Source: an uncultured Nitrososphaerales archaeon (GTDB lineage: Archaea; Thermoproteota; Nitrososphaeria; Nitrososphaerales; Nitrososphaeraceae). From it: DNA of 64,000 bases. The notes under the pieces were generated by a model, which saw only the letters and a program-made list of their open reading frames with translations, was not told the origin of the DNA and ran no database searches. The stretch is from contig CAVPXM010000021.1 of the NCBI GenBank assembly GCA_963709405.1, positions 1 through 64,000 on the forward strand, read 5' to 3'. Below are positions 47,872-61,160 of this stretch, piece after piece. The first letter of the stretch is position 1. Each line of letters begins with the position of its first letter. Position numbers and translations under genes: made by a program.

Positions 47872-48252
47872 CTACGAACCCATCATTCCTGGTATCTTAA
47901 TTGGAGTCCTATATGACCTAGTGATCTTCAATCCATGATCAGCAATGACAGTCACTGACTTTAAAGACGAACTAGATGGAGGGGAGAGCATTATTTTTTC
48001 TCCTGGAGATAGTGGGTTGATCTTCTCCGTGGAGTTATTGTCGTATATAACAGTAATGTTACTCAGAGGTAATCTTCCGGTATTTGTAAGCGTCACCCTT
48101 GCCGTATTAAAGAGGTTCTGATTATCTTTAATCGGATCTACATCTAGTGAAAAATTTTTGGTTGCTATTGAGAATACAGATATTAACAGCATCACTGAGA
48201 TAATGGCAATCGCTGCGCTTAAGCAGACATAAACGATCACCTTCATGTTCAT
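47872..48252 (-). CDS. Membrane-anchored Ig-like hypothetical protein
   Basis: N-terminal TM helix; VTLTNTG..LSPGE. Confidence 0.75.
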   Translation of the reverse strand: MNMKVIVYVCLSAAIAIISVMLLISVFSIATKNFSLDVDPIKDNQNLFNTARVTLTNTGRLPLSNITVIYDNNSTEKINPLSPGEKIMLSPPSSSSLKSVTVIADHGLKITRSYRTPIKIPGMMGS

Positions 48253-49116: not shown

Positions 49117-49998
49117 ATGCAAATAATTTATGATTATCCACTGTACAGGCCTCCGTCTGAGGCAGATTCTGTGATATTTCAAGTTACACTGGGTTGTTCT
49201 TATAACAAGTGTTCTTTCTGCAATATGTATAGGACAAAGCGCTATGTGGAGAGATCTCTGGATGAATTGAAGCCAGAAATAGACCTCATTGCTAATGAGC
49301 AGCCAGGAGCCAGCCGTATTTTTTTGGCAGACGGAGACGCACTTAACCTTCAAACTAATACCTTGCAAGAAATCTTGGAATATTTATATACGAAATTCAA
49401 AAACCTTGAAAGAGTTTCATGCTATGCGATGCCCAAGAATTTATTACAGAAAAAAGATACTGAATTACAGTTGCTCAAGAATTCAGGCTTAACTATGCTC
49501 TATGTTGGTATCGAGAGTGGTAATGATTTTGTATTGAGGAAGGTAACAAAGGGCGCCACTCAAAGAGGCATAGTTCAAAGTTGTGAGAAAGCGAAGCAGC
49601 ATGGTTTTACTCTATCATGCATGATAATTTTGGGACTTGGCGGTAAGACATATTCTCATCAACATATAATCGATACAGCAAGAATTGTAAGTGAGATTTC
49701 TCCTGATTATTTGGCTGCTTTAGCTTTACATTTAGAAGATGGCATTTATGACGAATTCATGAATAAGTATTCGGAAAAATTTTACCCGTTAGACGATTTG
49801 AGTATTCTGGAAGAATTGGATTCTCTAATAAGAGAACTCACTCCGAAACATCCTATATTATTCCGAGCAAATCATGCATCTAACGTGTATTCCATTGGTG
49901 GCATTATTCCTCAAGATAGAGACAAGCTTTTAAGCTTAATCAATGACCTGAAATGTCATCCAGAAATGTTAAGGGATAAGAATTTGAGAAGATTTTGA
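49117..49998 (+). CDS. Radical SAM protein
   Basis: RPPSEA..GCSYNKCSFC (CxxxCxxC), FLADGDAL, GIESG, FRANHASN. Confidence 0.92.
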   Translation: MQIIYDYPLYRPPSEADSVIFQVTLGCSYNKCSFCNMYRTKRYVERSLDELKPEIDLIANEQPGASRIFLADGDALNLQTNTLQEILEYLYTKFKNLERVSCYAMPKNLLQKKDTELQLLKNSGLTMLYVGIESGNDFVLRKVTKGATQRGIVQSCEKAKQHGFTLSCMIILGLGGKTYSHQHIIDTARIVSEISPDYLAALALHLEDGIYDEFMNKYSEKFYPLDDLSILEELDSLIRELTPKHPILFRANHASNVYSIGGIIPQDRDKLLSLINDLKCHPEMLRDKNLRRF

Positions 49999-50284
49999 TT
50001 TTCCAAAAAATTGATATACCTCTTCCAAGTATACCTCCTAAATATTAGTACCGATAGCAATGTTTCGAATGTAACTTAAATATTGGCTTAATTTTCTTTA
50101 ATGATTATCGATAAATCGAGAATGGAGTAAGTAAACCCAGTGAATGCGCTCGATCACACTGAACGTGCGATAGAACTAAAGTAATTCGACCGACAATCAA
50201 CAAAGAATATCGCAAATTCACTGGTCTGATTAGATAACAGTGTAGAGAAAAAGAAATTTAGGCGAGAGATTCAGTTTTTATACA

Positions 50285-50569
50285 TTACCAATGGTGTTTC
50301 TCATCTGGAATTAACCCAATCTGTTCACGTTCAAAGTATCTTTCGAGTTCTTGAGTCCATTTTTCCTTTGCAGCACCACCACCAAGACCCTTTCTCCTTA
50401 ACCAAAATGCAATAACACTCAGCAAAAATACTGCGAACAGCATTACTCCGAAGATGTAGACCATTACATCATAGAATAGTGGGTCGTATGCAGGTCCAAT
50501 CTGCTTCATCAAGCTCTCGAATGCATAGCTTACCATTGTTACAATGCCTAGGATAGCGCTCATTATCAT
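50285..50569 (-). CDS. amoY: Probable AMO accessory subunit AmoY (small membrane protein)
   Basis: 94 aa with hydrophobic helices then WLRRKGLGGGAAKEKWTQELERYFEREQIG; same strand as and downstream of the amoZ-like gene; TATA-like box ~25 nt upstream; identity rests on recall and synteny. Confidence 0.62.
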   Translation of the reverse strand: MIMSAILGIVTMVSYAFESLMKQIGPAYDPLFYDVMVYIFGVMLFAVFLLSVIAFWLRRKGLGGGAAKEKWTQELERYFEREQIGLIPDEKHHW

Positions 50570-50616
50570 ATAGAGCAAATAAGGTCTTCGATATATACAT
50601 TTTGGTTGTTTCCAAT

Positions 50617-51354
50617 GCTGGATTAAATTAAGGCTCCTCTCCACCTCTTATCAAGAACTTGATAATGTTTATTTTAGATTGTGATTTTGATAAATTATAT
50701 AAGAATATGAACAATATCTGCCATTGGTAAACATGAATTAGATTACAATCAACTAATTTCTTCCTAAACGGATAATAGTCATCAAAACCTCCGGTTCTAC
50801 CCTTACCTATTCCATACCCCTTCTCAATAATCCTTTTTTCAAATGGAGAATGGAATATATGCTTTAGTCTTAAGCACTTGCAAGCTTCACGATACCCGTC
50901 ACACGCCATCTGAATATGCACTATGTTTACCATAAAGCTTAATCAACGATTTCAGAAATGATTCAGCAACTAGTATATTCCTGTGCCTTGAAACATAAAC
51001 TCCAAGAATTATGTGTCGAATTGGTTCTATTGCAACCCAAAGCCATGCATGAGTATAGACGTTCTGAACCATTGCTTCGTCTATGATAGATATGCAGTTA
51101 TCCTACTACTCTTCTTTTTATCTAGAAAAACAACCTTTGGATTGAATTACTGTATCCAATACCATATTGCGACATAGCTTATGTCTACGAATGGTTCCAA
51201 TGCCCTTGAAGTATCTCTCAGACTTAAGCCAAGAAAATACAAATACAATGCATATCGGATAAGAAATGGTCTAGTTCTAATACGTTCAAACATTATCATA
51301 TTATTCTTAATCTGATCAAGCTTTAGCAATTACCATTCTTAACTTAACAGCAGC
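50617..51354 (-). mobile_element. IS6-family element remnant between amoZ and amoY
   Basis: IRYALYLYFLGLSLRDTSRAL..WYWIQ..LWVAIEP..YREACKCLRLKH..FDDYYP; ends gctggattaaattaag / cttaacttaacagcagc. Confidence 0.85.
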
Positions 51355-51585
51355 GTTTTCAATCACGAACCGGCTTGTTTGCAATCCGAATTATTATTCA
51401 AGGCCTTCTTAGTGGCATTTAGGGCCAGCTTAACAACTCCGCCGGAGTACCGAGACGCATTTCAATTATTATAACAGATCGAGTTAGCTGACCAAACAAT
51501 CTATCCTGTACACTCAACATTGATTTAATTATAAAATAGGGGTTATATATTAAAAATTATAAAACATAAAAAAAGATTATTTACG

Positions 51586-51898
51586 TCACCTCGTCACTTC
51601 TCTTTTTTTGCTCCTGCCCATAATAAAGAATGCCCCAGCAACCCCGCCAAATATCACCGCGAGAATGATGATGAATAATACAGTTTCGTTGATGTTAGTT
51701 CCAAGCATAGGTGTCCCTGATCCATAAGCTCCAGCAGATTTGGCGTTGCTTATTTTTTCCCGTGCTAATTTTAACTGTTCCTCGATATTACCTCCAGTTC
51801 CGAATACTGAGCTTTAGCTATCTCAATCGATGGTAAAGCAAACACAGAAATCGCCAGTGCTCCGCGACTGCAACAGCCACTATAGTATGCTTGTTCAT
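51586..51898 (-). CDS. amoZ: Probable AMO accessory subunit AmoZ; two 1-nt deletions; absent from the ORF track
   Basis: Reconstruction (104 aa): MNKHTIVAVAVAGALAISVFALPSIEIAKAQYSGTGGNIEEQLKLAREKISNAKSAGAYGSGTPMLGTNINETVLFIIILAVIFGGVAGAFFIMGRSKKREVTR; signal peptide, helix and C-terminal TM; divergent from rps15. Confidence 0.7.
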
Positions 51899-51998
51899 AC
51901 AATATATTACGACATGATTCAATTATTTAACTTTTGTGCACACGGAAAACAGACAAATTTGAGTAACATTTAAGAGATACGTCCAGCCCTGAACAATC

Positions 51999-52448
51999 AT
52001 GGCGAGAATGCATGCACATACTCGTGGTAAGTCTCATAGTGTTCGCCCAGTTTCTATCAATATACCTAATTGGCTAACGCAAGATTATGCTCAGGTATCG
52101 TCTCTAATTCTTCAATTATCAAGAGAAGGGCTAACGCCAAGTGAAATTGGCGTTTGCCTGCGCGATCAACATGCCATACCCTTGGCAAAACCAATCGTAG
52201 GCAAGTCTATTACTAATGTGCTGAGTGAGAGCGGAATAACACGGGATATGCCCGAAGATTTAGATCAGTTGGTGAAGAAAGCCTTGGGACTTCAAAGACA
52301 CCTGAGGTCTCATAATACCGATCATAGAAATGTTCGCTCATTGGAATTGATTGAGTCAAAAATACATCGTCTTTCTAGATACTATAAGGAAAAAGGAAAG
52401 CTTCAAAAAAATTGGAAGTATGCGACTGTTATAGCACAGCTAGAATAA
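51999..52448 (+). CDS. rps15: 30S ribosomal protein uS15
   Basis: MARMHAHTRGKSHSVRP..LRDQHAIP..ESKIHRLSRYY. Confidence 0.97.
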   Translation: MARMHAHTRGKSHSVRPVSINIPNWLTQDYAQVSSLILQLSREGLTPSEIGVCLRDQHAIPLAKPIVGKSITNVLSESGITRDMPEDLDQLVKKALGLQRHLRSHNTDHRNVRSLELIESKIHRLSRYYKEKGKLQKNWKYATVIAQLE

Positions 52449-52457
52449 AATGTTGGT

Positions 52458-53882
52458 ATGGGTAGCAGGGAACTATATGATACTTTAGGACGATTTAGCG
52501 AAAGAATTAGACTTGCAGTTGAGAATGAGAAAAGTATAGCTATAATTACCTCTCTGAATTCGGATGGATTGTGTTCAGGTGGCATAGCTACGATATCCTT
52601 GCTTAGACTAGGAGGAAAGTGCTCTGTTCGTACTGTTGTAGATCTGACTGCTGATGTTCTGTCTGATCTAAAGTCCTCTGGATATGATCTATTCATACTC
52701 ATCGACCTTGGCATCAATATGGTCAGTAAACTTGATTCACTTGGCGTTAAGTGGCTCCTTATTAATCATCAAATTATGGGATATCAGCTAGAGGAAAAAT
52801 CGTATGATCATGTTATTAATTTAGATAGGTGCGGCATAGATGGCAATAAGGAAATTTCTTCCGGAGGACTGGCATATCTTCTTGCTATGGAATTAAATAA
52901 CAAGAATAAAGATCTCTCGACTCTCGCTGTTGTATCTGCCTTGGCAGAAAAGCAAGATATAGGTGAAAAAAGATCGTTTGTAGGAATCAATTCTGAAATA
53001 GTTAATTCGGCTCAATCAATTGGAGCGCTCAGCGTTAAGTCTGGCTTAATGATTACTGGGGAGACAAGTCCAATTCATGAAGCGATTGCCTGCAACTTGG
53101 CTCCATGTATAGATGGTTTAACTTGGAATTATGAAAATTCATATTCGTTGGTAAAAAACTCTGGGCTTCGAATGAAGAATAAGAATGGACAGTGGCGCAT
53201 ACTCGCGGAACTCGACCATGAAGAAAGAGGGATACTTACGGAGAATATTATAAAATTCATAGTTACCAGTACTACTTCCGGACTACCAGTAGCTGACGAT
53301 CTTACTGGTTACATTTATACTCTGAGAGAAGATCCGGAAACCTCTATTCGAGATGCGAGACAATTTGTGGAATTACTAAATGCATGTGCAAGTGCAAACA
53401 AGGGTGGAGTCGGCTTGGGGATTTGTATGGGCGACAGAAGAATTAGCTTGGATGAAGGAGAAATGATATTTTTAGGTTATAAATCTGCTTTAAAGGAGAA
53501 TTTGTCCAGAATTTTTTCAGAGAGATGGCGCTTGAACGACTATGGAAATTGCGTAATTGTTTCTGGAGAGGGAGCTGTACATGAGACCATGATTGATTCA
53601 GTTTGTTCATTTCTGATGGAGTGTTTAACATTCAATGGTAAGCTCCTTTTGGTAAGAACGATAACCAAAGACAATACACATTATAAATTTTCTGTGATGA
53701 AGGGATTTAAATGTAAATTTCCATCTATTATTGGAGATCTGGTGAAAAATTGTTCTGAAGCGGTAGGAGGAGTCGCATGGGGCAGACCGAACTCAGCTAT
53801 ATGCGAGATTCCCATAATGAGATTAGAGGAATTCATGACATCCATTAGAAAACGGATTGGAGATACAAAATTTGAAGAGTAA
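52458..53882 (+). CDS. RecJ-like DHH-fold protein with degenerate catalytic motifs
   Basis: Lies after rps15; TSLNSDG, IDLG, INHQ, GIDGNKEISSGG, ELLNAC. Confidence 0.78.
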   Translation: MGSRELYDTLGRFSERIRLAVENEKSIAIITSLNSDGLCSGGIATISLLRLGGKCSVRTVVDLTADVLSDLKSSGYDLFILIDLGINMVSKLDSLGVKWLLINHQIMGYQLEEKSYDHVINLDRCGIDGNKEISSGGLAYLLAMELNNKNKDLSTLAVVSALAEKQDIGEKRSFVGINSEIVNSAQSIGALSVKSGLMITGETSPIHEAIACNLAPCIDGLTWNYENSYSLVKNSGLRMKNKNGQWRILAELDHEERGILTENIIKFIVTSTTSGLPVADDLTGYIYTLREDPETSIRDARQFVELLNACASANKGGVGLGICMGDRRISLDEGEMIFLGYKSALKENLSRIFSERWRLNDYGNCVIVSGEGAVHETMIDSVCSFLMECLTFNGKLLLVRTITKDNTHYKFSVMKGFKCKFPSIIGDLVKNCSEAVGGVAWGRPNSAICEIPIMRLEEFMTSIRKRIGDTKFEE

Positions 53883-54126
53883 AGTCGAAATTCGGATTCG
53901 TCTACAGATAAAATTCAAAATAGCATCAGAGTTATGTGCTGTAATGAATTCGCTAATGCCAGACAATATCGACTGTCCGGATGGATTGTCCGTAGAAATG
54001 TATGGGAAGTCTAACTGCCTCGTATTCGACATATCATGCAAAAGAGAAATTTGTGTCATAATAAACACTGTCGACGAAATTCTGAGTCATATCACAATGG
54101 CGAGACACGTGATCTCCAATGCTTGA
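53857..54126 (+). CDS. pcc1: KEOPS complex subunit Pcc1
   Basis: SLMPDN..PDGL..NTVDEILSHI; conserved rps15-DHH-pcc1 context. Confidence 0.72.
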   Translation: MEIQNLKSKVEIRIRLQIKFKIASELCAVMNSLMPDNIDCPDGLSVEMYGKSNCLVFDISCKREICVIINTVDEILSHITMARHVISNA

Positions 54127-55387
54127 CACAAAACTACTAAGGAATCCGAATTTAATAAAAGACCTAATCGGTAAGAGAAATCTAGAATTTCCATTGCAGG
54201 AATTGCTGCTATTGGACTCACGGAGGAGAGAGCTGAACCTTAGAGTAGATGAAATTAGACATAAGAAAAATATTCTAATCAACCAGATTTCGATGAAAAA
54301 GAAGGGGGATAGAGATACTTTAGAAGAAATAAAACTGATGAAAGAAACTAGTAACAATCTATCTAATCTCGAAGCTGAAAAATCAGAACTTGACACAAAA
54401 TTTAAGCGATTAATGATGCTCCTACCTAATTTGATATTAGATTCCGTCCCTATAGGGAAGAATGAATCAGATAATGTAATGGTAAGATCTCATGGAACAA
54501 TTAGGAAGCTAAATTTTCAAGGTAAAGACCATGTCGATTTAAGTACTACTCTTGATCTGGTCGATTTCGAAAGAGCGGCCAAAGTTGCCGGCGCTAGATT
54601 TTACTTTCTGAAGAACGATTTGGTCCTGTTGAATCAGGCGTTAATACGGATGGCATTAGATTTCTTGTCGGACAAATCTTACACTCTTTTGCAGCCTCCC
54701 TACATGATTCGAAAGGAAGCTATGGAAGGCGCGGTAATGCTTGGAGATTTCGAACAAGTCATTTACAAAATTGAGAATGAGGATCTTTACATGATAGGAA
54801 CGTCGGAACACGCCATTGCTTCAATGCATATGAATGAGATCCTTGATGGTAGTAAACTTCCGATACGATACGGGGCAATTAGTCCTTGCTTCAGAAAGGA
54901 AGCCGGAGCCCATGGAAAGGATATGAAAGGCATATTTAGGGTTCATCAATTTGAAAAGGTTGAGCAATTTGTCTACTCACGCCCCGAAGAGTCTGAAAAG
55001 CAGCACGACATCATGTTGGCAATCAGCGAAGCGTTCTACGAACAATTGGGAATTCCAACACGTACAATGTTACTGTGTTCAGGTGATTTGGGAAAGACGT
55101 CTGCGAAAACATTTGACGTCGAAGCATGGATGCCTGGTCAAAATGCCTATCGTGAAATAGTCTCATGTTCTAATTGTATAGATTATCAAGCTAGAGGGCT
55201 GCATATACGATTCAGAGATAGGCCAAATGATGAGACGAAGCTGGTCCACACATTAAATAGCACGCTAGTTGCTACGGAGCGATGCATGGTAGCAATAATT
55301 GAGAACTATCAAACAGATAGGGGCACAATTGAAGTTCCAGACGCCCTTAGAAAATATATGAACGATCTTAAAGAAATTGAGTTATAA
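54119..55387 (+). CDS. serS: Serine--tRNA ligase
   Basis: IGTSE, FRKEAG, FRVHQFEKVE, EIVSCSNC, HTLNST. Confidence 0.97.
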   Translation: MLDTKLLRNPNLIKDLIGKRNLEFPLQELLLLDSRRRELNLRVDEIRHKKNILINQISMKKKGDRDTLEEIKLMKETSNNLSNLEAEKSELDTKFKRLMMLLPNLILDSVPIGKNESDNVMVRSHGTIRKLNFQGKDHVDLSTTLDLVDFERAAKVAGARFYFLKNDLVLLNQALIRMALDFLSDKSYTLLQPPYMIRKEAMEGAVMLGDFEQVIYKIENEDLYMIGTSEHAIASMHMNEILDGSKLPIRYGAISPCFRKEAGAHGKDMKGIFRVHQFEKVEQFVYSRPEESEKQHDIMLAISEAFYEQLGIPTRTMLLCSGDLGKTSAKTFDVEAWMPGQNAYREIVSCSNCIDYQARGLHIRFRDRPNDETKLVHTLNSTLVATERCMVAIIENYQTDRGTIEVPDALRKYMNDLKEIEL

Positions 55388-55509
55388 TAACCAGAACGAA
55401 ACTAGCCGATGCCATCATGATGAATTATGTTCCAGCAGCCTTGAATTGACGTCTGCGTAAAATACCATTGACAAGAAAGCGAAAATAAAAGATAGGAAAA
55501 ATAAAGTTG

Positions 55510-56067
55510 TTAGATGACTTGCCAGGGTCGAGTAGCGAAGGTTACACCTAATCCAGCGCCGATAAGAATTACTTGGTAGGCCACATTGCCCCATGGAACA
55601 GGCTTAAGTATTGCAGGGCCAGTTACTTGAACTGTTTGACCCGGACCGAGGCCTGGCCCAATGTGTTCAATATTCAGTTGAGTGTGAACGTGGTATGTGC
55701 CAGGTTCCAATGCCTTTACTGTTATTGAGTACGGAACGTTTGCTCCCGCGGGAATATCAAATATGTTGCCTGGAGGATCTCTAGACATAAATTCCCATCT
55801 ATTCCCTGCATTTGTCGACTCACTAAATAGGGACAACCATGCTCTGAGAGGCCGATTAACTAGACTCTGAAGCGTACCAGTGACAGTTAGTGTATCACCT
55901 GTATGCAAGGTTTGAGCTGAAAAGGATTCATCAGCTATCCTAACAAATCTACTCTGTAACTGAGCCTGTACTCCGTGTGCATGCGCTGTTGGCAAGTATG
56001 CCAATAGCGTAGACAAAACTGTCGCCGCAACGAGAGACGTCACTATATACGTCTTGCACTTGATCAT
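55510..56067 (-). CDS. amoB: Ammonia monooxygenase subunit B
   Basis: Signal peptide ending AHA then HGVQAQLQSRF, SESTNAGNRWE, YHVHTQLN, C-terminal TM ..FATRPWQVI; ATG at 56067 (GTG alternative at 56097). Confidence 0.96.
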   Translation of the reverse strand: MIKCKTYIVTSLVAATVLSTLLAYLPTAHAHGVQAQLQSRFVRIADESFSAQTLHTGDTLTVTGTLQSLVNRPLRAWLSLFSESTNAGNRWEFMSRDPPGNIFDIPAGANVPYSITVKALEPGTYHVHTQLNIEHIGPGLGPGQTVQVTGPAILKPVPWGNVAYQVILIGAGLGVTFATRPWQVI

Positions 56068-56737
56068 GCCTTTGTATCTAGCGGTACCAGTAGACACAAA
56101 GATATATATTTTGCTGTGATGCCCTGGCGTTTATCAACTTGACTTAGGGCGCAAACCTCGCATCGTGGTAAATAAATGTAGCTTTCGGATCGAGTTATGC
56201 AAATATTTCTCATATAATCGTAGCTTTTTTCATGCTTACTTTTCAGCAGTCTAAAGCTTTCTGTTCATTTGGGTAAACAAAATCAAAGTCATATAGGTTT
56301 GTGCAGGTTTACTAGAGCAAGACAAATCGATTTGAGAACAGATCTCTAACTAATCCGAGAAGGTAAGATATTGTCTAAATATAGGCCGAAATATTACAAT
56401 CTTGTAATTAGAAGGTCTGTAAAAATTTTTCAAAATTCTAGGTTCGAGGCTATGAGATTTCATTTTACGTTAGATGGAATTGATATGAGGGATGTTCGCA
56501 CTCCATCGATTTCTAATACCAAACGATGCGAGTTCGAACTAAAAAGTTGACAATAACTATATCATTCAAATATGATATCAGGGGTAAATGTGATACAAGA
56601 ATATCGAACATACAATGCTAGTTACTGTGTATACGGACACAACGAGTTTAGTAGCTATAAAATACATATGTTAGTTCTGATGAAACCGCAATAGCAATAG
56701 CAAAATTTAAAAAGGTATTGTCTTAATAATACATCAA

Positions 56738-57031
56738 ATGACATTACCGAAGGGATGGGGCACAGGTGGAAGGAGAGGCGAAAGCAGAGACGATGTTGAA
56801 AAGATGATAGGACGCAGAGTCGAGAATATGGCTCCCATATTCATCCTAGGATTTGTGCTGTGTTGGGTTGCTACTGCTGGAGGTGTATATGTGGGTGTTA
56901 CAATATATCCATGGGCATATCCGTTGCCTAGCGGCGTGTATGCGTTGTCTGTTTTGACTGTCATCGAAGGATTGGGATTCCTCTTCATAATGAAGATTAG
57001 TCGCGAGAAGCTTGGTTATGCATCATACTAG
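56738..57031 (+). CDS. amoX: Ammonia monooxygenase subunit X
   Basis: MTLPKGWG..KMIGRRVENM..YPWAYPLPSGVYALSVLTVIE; immediately upstream of amoA. Confidence 0.9.
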   Translation: MTLPKGWGTGGRRGESRDDVEKMIGRRVENMAPIFILGFVLCWVATAGGVYVGVTIYPWAYPLPSGVYALSVLTVIEGLGFLFIMKISREKLGYASY

Positions 57032-57182
57032 GATATAAGATTCCTTATTTGATGGGTTGTGCAATTACCATATTTTCTATGAGATTTCTCACTTCTTTTT
57101 TCTAATTTTTACCGCTTTCTGGAACGTTATTTATGCAAGAGCCGATTTATCACTTATTAAATAACATGCAATTAGACTGTTC

Positions 57183-57197
57183 ATAAATTTTATATAT
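57183..57197 (+). promoter_or_regulatory. BRE/TATA promoter of amoA (likely leaderless transcript)
   Basis: cataaa-ttttatata about 25 nt upstream of ATG 57220. Confidence 0.55.
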
Positions 57198-57219
57198 TAC
57201 CTATCTTAGTACGTTACTA

Positions 57220-57870
57220 ATGGTCTGGCTTCGACGCACAACGCACTATCTGTTTATAGTAGTAGTTGCTGTAAACAGCACACTATTGACTATTAATGCT
57301 GGAGACTATATATTCTACACTGATTGGGCATGGACGTCATTCGTAGTATTCTCTATCTCTCAATCGACAATGCTTGTGGTAGGGGCAATATACTATATGC
57401 TATTTACAGGAGTGCCGGGTACGGCTACTTATTATGCAACCATTATGACGATATATACGTGGGTTGCAAAGGGCGCCTGGTTTGCATTAGGATACCCATA
57501 CGACTTCGTTACAGTACCGGTTTGGATACCTTCAGCAATGTTATTAGACCTGACATATTGGGCAACGAGAAGGAATAAACACGCCGCTATAATCATAGGC
57601 GGGACACTCGTAGGTTTATCTCTTCCAATGTTCAATATGATCAACCTTCTACTGATTAGAGATCCACTAGAGGTAGCTTTCAAGTATCCTCGTCCAACAC
57701 TACCGCCGTACATGACTCCCATCGAGCCTCAGGTCGGGAAGTTCTACAACAGTCCCGTAGCCTTAGGAGCAGGCGCAGGAGCAGTGCTATCAGTGCCAAT
57801 TGCAGCATTGGGTGCTAAACTAAACACGTGGACATATAGATGGATGGCCGCGTGGAGTAAGTGGGATTAA
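57220..57870 (+). CDS. amoA: Ammonia monooxygenase subunit A
   Basis: Canonical 216-aa archaeal AmoA, MVWLRRTTHYLFIVVVAVNSTLLTINAGDYIFYTDW..AAWSKWD. Confidence 0.99.
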   Translation: MVWLRRTTHYLFIVVVAVNSTLLTINAGDYIFYTDWAWTSFVVFSISQSTMLVVGAIYYMLFTGVPGTATYYATIMTIYTWVAKGAWFALGYPYDFVTVPVWIPSAMLLDLTYWATRRNKHAAIIIGGTLVGLSLPMFNMINLLLIRDPLEVAFKYPRPTLPPYMTPIEPQVGKFYNSPVALGAGAGAVLSVPIAALGAKLNTWTYRWMAAWSKWD

Positions 57871-57883
57871 GCTTCCCAACCTA

Positions 57884-57908
57884 ATTTTCTTTTTTTTGAA
57901 GGGTTTTT
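57884..57908 (+). terminator. Oligo-T terminator downstream of amoA
   Basis: attttcttttttttg..ttttt immediately after the stop codon. Confidence 0.5.
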
Positions 57909-58240
57909 GTTCGAAATTCATTTTGTCTTATATTTTAGCAATGGATTACATGTTTACATATTCGAGTCATGAATCTAGCATAGTAAACCTAGGTAAACTA
58001 CGGGTAATTTCATAAGATAATTCCTAAATTCTAATCTAGTTTAAATTCACATTCAATCACAATTGATTATGGAATATGAACGATTAATCTTGATACTTCA
58101 TTCACTCGAACCCTGACTAGTCATTGAATTACATCTAAATTGTACTTGGCCAGGCACTATTCAAATCCACGAGGTTATAAAAGAACCTTGCTTAGTACCT
58201 AATGCTAAATGCTATCCTAGACTGATTATGGTACAGTAAT

Positions 58241-61160
<2,920 letters not shown>

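Follow-up and report, generated by a model that had tools for sequence, protein, structure and literature searches.

A probable once-inverted form of the ancestral ammonia monooxygenase gene cluster in an uncultured soil Nitrososphaeraceae archaeon

The DNA analysed here, hereafter the window, is a 64,000-nucleotide stretch (positions 1 to 64,000 of contig CAVPXM010000021.1, forward strand; assembly GCA_963709405.1) from an uncultured archaeon of the Nitrososphaerales, family Nitrososphaeraceae. It contains five ammonia monooxygenase (AMO) genes (Y, Z, B, X and A) within 7.6 kb, at 50285-57870. Their order and strands, given in the initial annotation as amoY(-), IS6, amoZ(-), rps15-DHH-pcc1-serS(+), amoB(-), amoX(+), amoA(+), are confirmed by the open reading frame (ORF) listing and by Pfam and NCBIfam matches. 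In the 4.83-Mb assembly amoA, amoB, amoX, amoY and amoC are each single-copy. What the genes are, how they are ordered and flanked, the presence of the insertion and the indels against public contigs are matters of observation; from them we consider it highly probable that the stretch is the AMO gene cluster of an uncultured soil ammonia-oxidizing member of the Nitrososphaeraceae, kept in an ancestral order that has been inverted once.

At the right end of the cluster, amoA (57220-57870, plus strand) encodes a 216-residue protein matching Pfam Archaeal_AmoA (PF12942) with 392.7 bits against a cut-off of 25.6, and directly upstream of it is amoX (56738-57031, plus strand; 97 residues). AmoA matched zero chains at E ≤ 0.001 in a copy of the PDB sequences that does not include 9XJ2, the archaeal AMO structure cited in a 2026 preprint. 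On the minus strand, amoB (55510-56097) encodes 195 residues with an N-terminal cupredoxin domain and a C-terminal transmembrane (TM) helix; it matches Pfam Monooxygenase_B (PF04744) with 44.7 bits (cut-off 22.7) and is 57-62% identical to AmoB of three other families of ammonia-oxidizing archaea (AOA; tblastn). Its match to NCBIfam AmoB_BACT (E 6e-15) stays under the cut-off of that model because archaeal AmoB lacks the C-terminal half. The spacer between amoB and amoX (56098-56737) is the site of amoC in loci with the ancestral order. A tblastn search with AmoC detected no amoC remnant there or elsewhere in the window; the genome's only amoC is on another contig (G000:C30:45394-45954), at a distance of over 45 kb from the contig end. 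The same spacer carries a 6-nt deletion polymorphism at 56688 in contigs of the public runs X1, X2 and X15, and the X15 contigs have several further small indels across 56203-56667.

Between amoB and amoZ lie four plus-strand genes, namely rps15 (51999-52448; S15/S13e; Pfam Ribosomal_S13_N 83.8 bits, Ribosomal_S15 47.3 bits), which is divergent from amoZ; an archaeal RecJ-like DHH nuclease gene (recJ, 52458-53882; NCBIfam RecJ_archaeal 269 bits, cut-off 360; Pfam DHH_CID 31.2 bits); pcc1, for a KEOPS subunit (53857-54126; NF011470 28 bits, cut-off 27); and serS, for seryl-tRNA synthetase (54119-55387; Pfam tRNA-synt_2b 134.5 bits, Seryl_tRNA_N 55.1 bits). To their left on the minus strand are amoZ (51586-51922), a short cysteine-free form lying in three frames, a decayed IS6-family insertion sequence (IS; 50628-51373), and amoY (50285-50569), which encodes 94 residues from an ATG at 50569 within a 119-residue ORF and has one central TM helix. 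The cluster is flanked on the left by a radical-SAM (rSAM) gene (49117-49998, plus strand; Pfam Radical_SAM 70.8 bits) and on the right by the beta and alpha genes of a 2-oxoacid:ferredoxin oxidoreductase (OFOR; 58241-61160, minus strand; Pfam TPP_enzyme_C, PFO_beta_C, POR_N and POR). Upstream of the rSAM gene, a minus-strand ORF (47872-48252) encodes a 126-residue protein, predicted to be membrane-anchored, that matches nothing in Pfam or NCBIfam.

AmoX, AmoY and AmoZ find no meaningful family in Pfam or NCBIfam, only chance-level matches to Yip1, FliL and an exchanger. Since neither database holds models for these proteins, we drew their identity from peptides, distribution and position. Three mass spectrometry (MS) peptides are listed for the 82-residue AmoY of Nitrososphaera viennensis (NVIE_004540; PMC10030591, Table S9): EQIGLIPDEKHHW, GLGGGSAKEK and EKWAQELER. 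The window protein ends in KGLGGGAAKEKWTQELERYFEREQIGLIPDEKHHW, in which 13 of 13 residues are identical to EQIGLIPDEKHHW, and it matches at eight of nine residues each in KGLGGGAAK (KGLGGGSAK in N. viennensis) and EKWTQELER (EKWAQELER). Its hydrophobic stretch, VMVYIFGVMLFAVFLLSVIAFWL, reads by eye as a TM helix, and its size fits a small membrane protein of ~82-94 residues. In 31 related genomes, which are a sample and not the AOA as a whole, AmoY occurs in 22, among them 18 of 18 from the family and a single genome from each of three further families (G021, G026 and G030); Pfam Archaeal_AmoA is found in exactly these 22 and in none of the remaining nine. In G021, G026 and G030 the AmoY homologue lies between the amoZ-position gene and amoB (tblastn). 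For AmoX, the N-terminus MTLPKGWGTGGR matches nine of the 11 residues of the N. viennensis MS peptide TLPKGYGSGGR (same table), and the protein is 52-62% identical to the amoX-position genes of the same three genomes.

We extended the comparison with an AmoY alignment in a one-genome-per-species scan, which found 562 relatives; of these we retained the best 80 loci, each with at most 10 kb of flanking DNA in either direction. All 80 are titled as Nitrososphaeraceae, Nitrososphaerales or Thermoproteota metagenome-assembled genomes (MAGs), and we read their orders with AmoY on the plus strand. In every one of these loci that shows both genes, amoX is directly upstream of amoA.

The amoZ gene lies upstream of amoY on the same strand, with the IS now between them in the window, and the two are adjacent in six of six same-genus loci. 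Same-genus AmoZ matches the amoZ-position genes of G026 (E 2.8e-12), G030 (3.7e-11) and G021 (9.8e-11) by tblastn, and AmoZ of G026 and of G030 match the window itself at E 2e-9 and 3e-9. The genus proteins and those of G026, G030 and G021 have a GAYGSGT-TM core in common. Read by eye, intact AmoZ consists of a signal peptide, a glycine-rich linker, an amphipathic helix (NIEEQLKLAREKI), the motif GAYGSGTPMLG and one TM helix; the window copy shows this layout only if both of its frame breaks are read through. The initial annotation had proposed the two small proteins as AmoY and AmoZ, and their homology is supported by the AmoY peptide identity, by positional orthology in the three other families and by co-occurrence with AmoA. 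One point counts against it for AmoZ: the segment with the cysteine pair is missing, so that the gene is identified by its position and by the C-terminal two thirds of its product.

That segment distinguishes two forms of AmoZ. The AlphaFold model of the N. viennensis protein has an N-terminal helix pair held by a disulfide (PMC10030591). The window AmoZ does not have such a pair, since it contains zero cysteines and shows a 17-column gap at the C...C site. The same 17-residue segment is missing from 37 of 39 aligned amoZ-position proteins; it is present, with two cysteines, in L104 (titled Nitrososphaera sp.) and L014 (G026) only. The N. viennensis AmoZ (NVIE_004550) peptide SECTENAILAKR resembles the long form of L014 (CTQHSILAKK) and not the window form. 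By this alignment, the disulfide-linked helix pair modelled for N. viennensis AmoZ is not family-wide. The cytoplasmic tails of AmoZ also vary: that of G007 (L017 6032-6454, minus strand) ends in a zinc-ribbon-like CxxC...CxxC tail, and one subclade with the window order (L045, L048, L060 and relatives) has a charged tail of ~30 residues, EPDWKLEAQRYKDELEAMKRNQNR.

Gene order in G021, G026 and G030, which represent three other AOA families, is serS- pcc1- recJ- rps15- amoZ+ amoY+ amoB- amoC+ amoX+ amoA+; the run amoZ+ amoY+ amoB- amoC+ amoX+ amoA+ is the published fully syntenic order (PMC10030591). Because the operon is divergent from amoZ in all three, we take rps15-recJ-pcc1-serS to be the ancestral neighbour of amoZ. 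Nine of the 80 Nitrososphaeraceae loci retain this order with amoC, and in three of them (L044, L056 and L063) the ancestral cluster has rSAM+ to its left and OFORb- OFORa- to its right, the same flanks as in the window. Each adjacency is found more widely, AmoA+ OFORb- OFORa- in L034, L044, L056, L058 and L063, and rSAM+ SerS- in L043, L044, L056, L063 and others. As the flanks are the same and the inner block is reversed, the window is best read as an ancestral locus in which serS through amoY was flipped in place and amoC was removed. The rearranged, near-ancestral cluster proposed in the initial annotation thus holds on comparison with the three other families and the 80 loci.

The proposed course would start from an ancestral AOA order rSAM> <serS <pcc1 <recJ <rps15 amoZ> amoY> <amoB amoC> amoX> amoA> <OFOR, with the direction of change suggested by outgroup parsimony. 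The six-gene block from serS to amoY would have been inverted in place, amoC would have left its place between amoB and amoX, and, in this species only, an IS6-family element would have been inserted between amoZ and amoY and then have decayed. Judged from the gene orders, the left junction falls at 49999-50284, between the ends of the rSAM gene and amoY, and the right junction at 55388-55509, between the ends of serS and amoB. Both breakpoints lie in tail-to-tail spacers before and after the flip, and therefore every gene keeps its upstream region and promoter.

The window adjacency recurs in all six same-genus loci, and the window order (amoB+ serS-..rps15- amoZ+ amoY+, with rSAM- where visible) is found in 21 of the 80 loci. 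These come from several genera, and some of them are titled Ca. Nitrosopolaris or Nitrososphaera sp. AFS. A further six loci show the amoY/rSAM junction alone. The ancestral order is kept with amoC in the nine loci described above and without it (amoY+ amoB- amoX+) in 18; four loci run amoY+ amoB- to a contig end. In ten loci the operon alone is flipped (rps15+..serS+ amoZ+ amoY+ amoB-), two (L070 and L086) have odd orders, and ten are uninformative, among them L103 and L104, which lack amoB in the 10 kb downstream of amoY. Overall, amoB shares a stretch with amoZ-amoY in 63 of 80 loci, and six loci hold all six amo genes (L034, L044, L056, L058, L063 and, in scrambled order, L070). The last of these (G011:C84) reads OFORb+ amoA- amoY+ amoB- amoC+ amoX+ amoZ- rps15+.., with a second AmoA match on another contig. 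The view of the window as a snapshot of a cluster breaking up does not survive this comparison, as the same order is kept in 21 loci of several genera. Within the family, a one-per-genus sample places amoA less than 7 kb from amoY in four of 12 other genera and 204 kb away in one (G007); in seven of the 12, amoA is on a contig other than that of amoY, which is uninformative in fragmented assemblies.

How often the block was inverted is less certain. Two observations weigh against the proposed course: neither inverted repeats pairing 49999-50284 with 55388-55509 nor a mobile element at either junction was found, and the window-order rows form three groups on each of two trees, one of SerS (69 rows) and one of SerS+RecJ+S15 (67 rows). 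The inverted order could have arisen two or three times, or switch repeatedly between the two orientations, at the same pair of tail-to-tail spacers, and we regard this as a possible but clearly less favoured explanation. The three separate groups on both trees speak for it, with starred branches forcing at least two changes, as do other flips nearby, of the operon alone in ten loci, of the operon with amoZ in G007, and of the block from amoB to OFOR in L086. On the other side, an approximately unbiased (AU) test did not reject one clade of all 21 window-order rows (against 46 others; p = 0.16), the trees come from three linked genes and have weak deep branches (77-86), and the junctions have no repeats. 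On the three-gene tree the window's genus joins a second window-order group with 98% support. A single inversion is compatible with the data, and two or three are possible.

The initial annotation placed an amoZ gene between the IS and rps15. A homologue is indeed there, but it is not open in the window: the sole ORF listed for this region has 40 residues (51586-51708), and an intact 113-residue AmoZ of the same genus aligns by tblastn as three segments, each in a different frame (51863-51922, 51801-51860 and 51589-51798). Alignment to the orthologue gives the breaks as one 1-nt gap and one gap aligned as 4 nt. Contigs of four public runs of the same species (X1, X2, X6 and X15; three DNA libraries and one RNA library, from four studies) all have two bases that the window lacks, a T following 51801 and a G following 51861, and by coordinate arithmetic the addition of both bases joins the three pieces into one frame of 112 codons. 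Both bases being present in all four runs, we conclude that amoZ is intact in the species and that the window copy differs by two single-base deletions. Orthologues in all six same-genus loci are likewise intact, with 105-113 residues.

We consider the frame breaks most likely to be faults of this assembly, given that both missing bases are present in four public data sets for this species. Several observations weigh against that explanation. The two breaks lie 60 nt apart, outside homopolymers, and are the sole 1-nt indels common to all runs across 8.2 kb; X6 shares some single-base alleles of the window, which makes its base calls at other sites look like genuine differences between strains; and the public runs are represented by contigs and not raw reads, so that rare variants are hidden. 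The breaks could instead be real, belonging to a strain or a population majority with a pseudogenized amoZ, and this we judge unlikely although it deserves mention. The two deletions do not compensate each other, neither is in a homopolymer, and no further 1-nt indel is common to all runs over the 8.2 kb. Single-base differences of the window from X1 and X2 are partly common to X6, suggesting that the assembly reports real alleles. There would then be no intact amoZ, as the only other amoZ-like sequence of the assembly (G000:C83:28611-28889; L022 1501-1779) has two in-frame TAA codons and therefore is no substitute for the cluster gene. This sequence is 54-56% identical to genus AmoZ, has a degraded signal peptide and sits 3.7 kb from an IS copy (G000:C83:24171-24887).

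Against a real loss stand the two bases in four of four public runs, the intact gene in six of six same-genus loci, and the conservation of AmoZ across the AOA reported by Hodgskiss et al. 2023 (PMC10030591), together with its seat in the cryo-EM complex (bioRxiv 10.64898/2026.08.31.748207). The assembly is, moreover, only 91% complete. In the same-genus MAG G004, amoA shows a like pattern, lying in three frames through two nearby breaks (L020 4049-4698, minus strand; G004:C24:168102-168652), probably an assembly fault; because no ammonia oxidizer could lose amoA, the pattern suggests a technical origin in assemblies of this kind. It is improbable that a population truly without an intact amoZ persists as a widespread soil ammonia oxidizer. 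If it did, AmoZ/AmoG, described as part of the clamp between AMO protomers, would be dispensable in at least some Nitrososphaeraceae.

The initial annotation described the cluster as wrapped around a translation operon, and a move or insertion of the operon into a formerly compact amo cluster would account for the four operon genes now between amoZ and amoB; we consider it very improbable, given that rps15 adjoins amoZ in G021, G026, G030, G007 and G017 and is its divergent neighbour in every one of the 80 loci showing both, barring the ten with the operon alone flipped, that the 30S protein S15 is listed among conserved amo neighbours (PMC10030591, Table S15), and that the rSAM and OFOR flanks are unchanged. 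One in-place inversion of the ancestral neighbour is enough to centre it.

Mis-assembly or chimeric binning is scarcely credible as the source of the adjacency: the assembly is a MAG of 100 contigs with 3.67% contamination, and the public contigs break inside the IS, yet independent contigs from three DNA runs and three studies (X1, X2 and X6) cover both junctions and all gene boundaries except the IS interior, and 21 further loci, drawn from different assemblies, have the window order. X1 record 6 spans 51299-58100, X1 record 1 spans 49900-51310 and X2 record 22 spans 53269-57611; the left junction falls within X1 record 1 and X6 record 24, and both X1 record 6 and X2 record 22 run across the right one. 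The only break in these contigs falls inside the repeated IS, as expected for a repeat. Contigs of the RNA library X15 match amoY, amoZ-rps15, recJ, pcc1, serS, amoX and amoA at 90-99% likeness; they give zero cover on 50996-51543, and as contigs they can show neither transcription nor its absence.

The element between amoZ and amoY, annotated initially as IS6, does belong to that family, but it is a decayed member without an intact transposase. The transposase remnants (50628-51329, minus strand) are three pieces in three frames, with matches to NF033587 of 29.6 and 21.2 bits (E 5e-7 and 1.9e-4), below the cut-off of 125. The amoY-amoZ spacer measures 947 nt in the window and 297 nt in G003, and the extra DNA aligns to none of six same-genus loci. 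Its limits are set by the copy near the amoZ-like sequence (G000:C83:24171-24887), which is 83% identical. The IS is also present in X1 and X2 contigs. There is one candidate for terminal repeats, 23 nt long and 78% complementary (50648-50670 and 51288-51310), inside the limits given by the second copy; we identified no target duplication of the 8 bp expected for IS6. The window's genome (G000), an unusually large AOA assembly (4.8 Mb), has 34 matches to the element on many contigs, and in the best-preserved copy seen (C7) the transposase is still in two frames. In another genome of the genus (G001; L019 10467-11360) the amoY-amoZ spacer has ~890 nt, compared with 300-360 nt in other same-genus genomes, and is not alignable to the window's IS, representing a different insertion at the same spot.

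Homology to relatives ends at the IS and resumes at 50607, where the AT-rich motif AACCAAAATGTATATAT begins (50591-50607, minus strand). The motif lies 22-38 nt upstream of the amoY start, ending 22 nt before the ATG, and shows no variation among four genomes of the genus and a fifth from another genus. It may be amoY's own B-recognition element (BRE)/TATA promoter, with a leaderless transcript beginning just downstream. If so, the IS would have landed between two transcription units, harming neither. A sigma-70 promoter scan (34 sites, 27.8 expected) and a terminator scan (3 sites, 4.2 expected) are uninformative for an archaeon.

AmoX, AmoY and AmoZ were proposed as AMO subunits in 2023 (PMC10030591), and the background statements of the initial annotation, on this proposal and on dispersed and clustered amo genes, agree with that paper. 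Like the Nitrosocaldaceae amoABCXYZ cluster described there, the locus (in its ancestral form) involves six gene families, and the window shares with it the orientation of amoB relative to amoX-amoA, the relative orientation of amoZ-amoY, and the divergent rps15; it differs in the inversion of serS..amoY, the departure of amoC, the IS6 remnant between amoZ and amoY, and the short cysteine-free AmoZ. With the cultured Nitrososphaera and Nitrosocosmicus of the same family it has in common a linked amoX-amoA and an unlinked amoC, but unlike those scattered genomes it keeps five amo genes within 7.6 kb (PMC10030591). Scattering is also seen in G007, where the operon separates amoZ and amoY and amoA is 204 kb off. 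The published MAGs of Ca. Nitrosopolaris (PMC10117904) resemble the window in having adjacent amoYZ and an AmoZ with 32% similarity to the N. viennensis protein, the same short form, and the low similarity arises because a short form is compared with a long one. That paper has amoYZ, 'with few exceptions', on a contig apart from that of the remaining amo genes (PMC10117904); four loci titled Nitrosopolaris among our 80 differ from this description, since amoB adjoins serS on their amoZY contigs, as in the window order. Later papers, in the passages searched, give the presence of amoXYZ in soil MAGs and not their order (PMC11131427, PMC11559005, PMC10579303). Among the matches listed for papers with operon-style names (amoBCXA, amoZYBCXA), none is by title or abstract on Nitrososphaeraceae gene order; Fig. 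S11 of Hodgskiss et al. 2023 and the extended-data synteny of the preprint may show more.

In the cryo-EM structure of the Nitrosopumilus maritimus AMO, AmoX, AmoY and AmoZ are the structural subunits AmoD, AmoF and AmoG, and the F-G pair is described as a clamp between protomers (bioRxiv 10.64898/2026.08.31.748207). In its assembly, the enzyme of the window's organism may match those of N. maritimus and N. viennensis. The N. maritimus enzyme has two further subunits, AmoE and AmoH (same preprint); the window cluster contains no extra conserved small ORF, although the AmoE and AmoH sequences themselves were not searched. When 50 stop-to-stop frames from the cluster spacers were compared with the 80 loci, scores arose only where a frame overlaps the end of a known gene, which yields no candidate for AmoE. 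Nor does the amoY-amoB spacer of G026, a marine-type relative from a family of 10 genomes, hold a credible ORF for AmoE. The marine cluster also carries Nmar_1504, reported by the preprint to be absent from terrestrial AOA. AmoX, AmoY and AmoZ are thus already known subunits, and the locus, genuine but largely ordinary, adds no new AMO component. Nor does it provide independent synteny support for Y and Z, as the initial annotation suggested, because this synteny descends from the ancestral cluster on which Hodgskiss et al. already drew.

Three comparative points are of moderate specialist interest: the retention of the cluster, the clean inversion and the widespread short AmoZ. A practical one concerns annotation, since Pfam and NCBIfam miss amoZ and amoY, and any gene caller would also miss amoZ in this assembly. 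Most of the family has the shorter, cysteine-free AmoZ, which matters for modelling or solving a soil-type AMO from an N. viennensis or N. maritimus template. The clean tail-to-tail inversion could serve as a rare-genomic-change marker for a group of genera.

According to the published view, amo genes scattered on the emergence of the Nitrososphaeraceae, and Table S16 of that study lists eight genomes of the family, from Nitrososphaera and Nitrosocosmicus, none of them fully syntenic (PMC10030591). Resting on eight cultured-type genomes, this view is too broad. Uncultured soil Nitrososphaeraceae, the dominant group in soil nitrifier communities, mostly retain the ancestral amo cluster or its once-inverted version. 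The scattering described from cultured members of Nitrososphaera and Nitrosocosmicus therefore came later, in particular lineages, and does not characterize the family.

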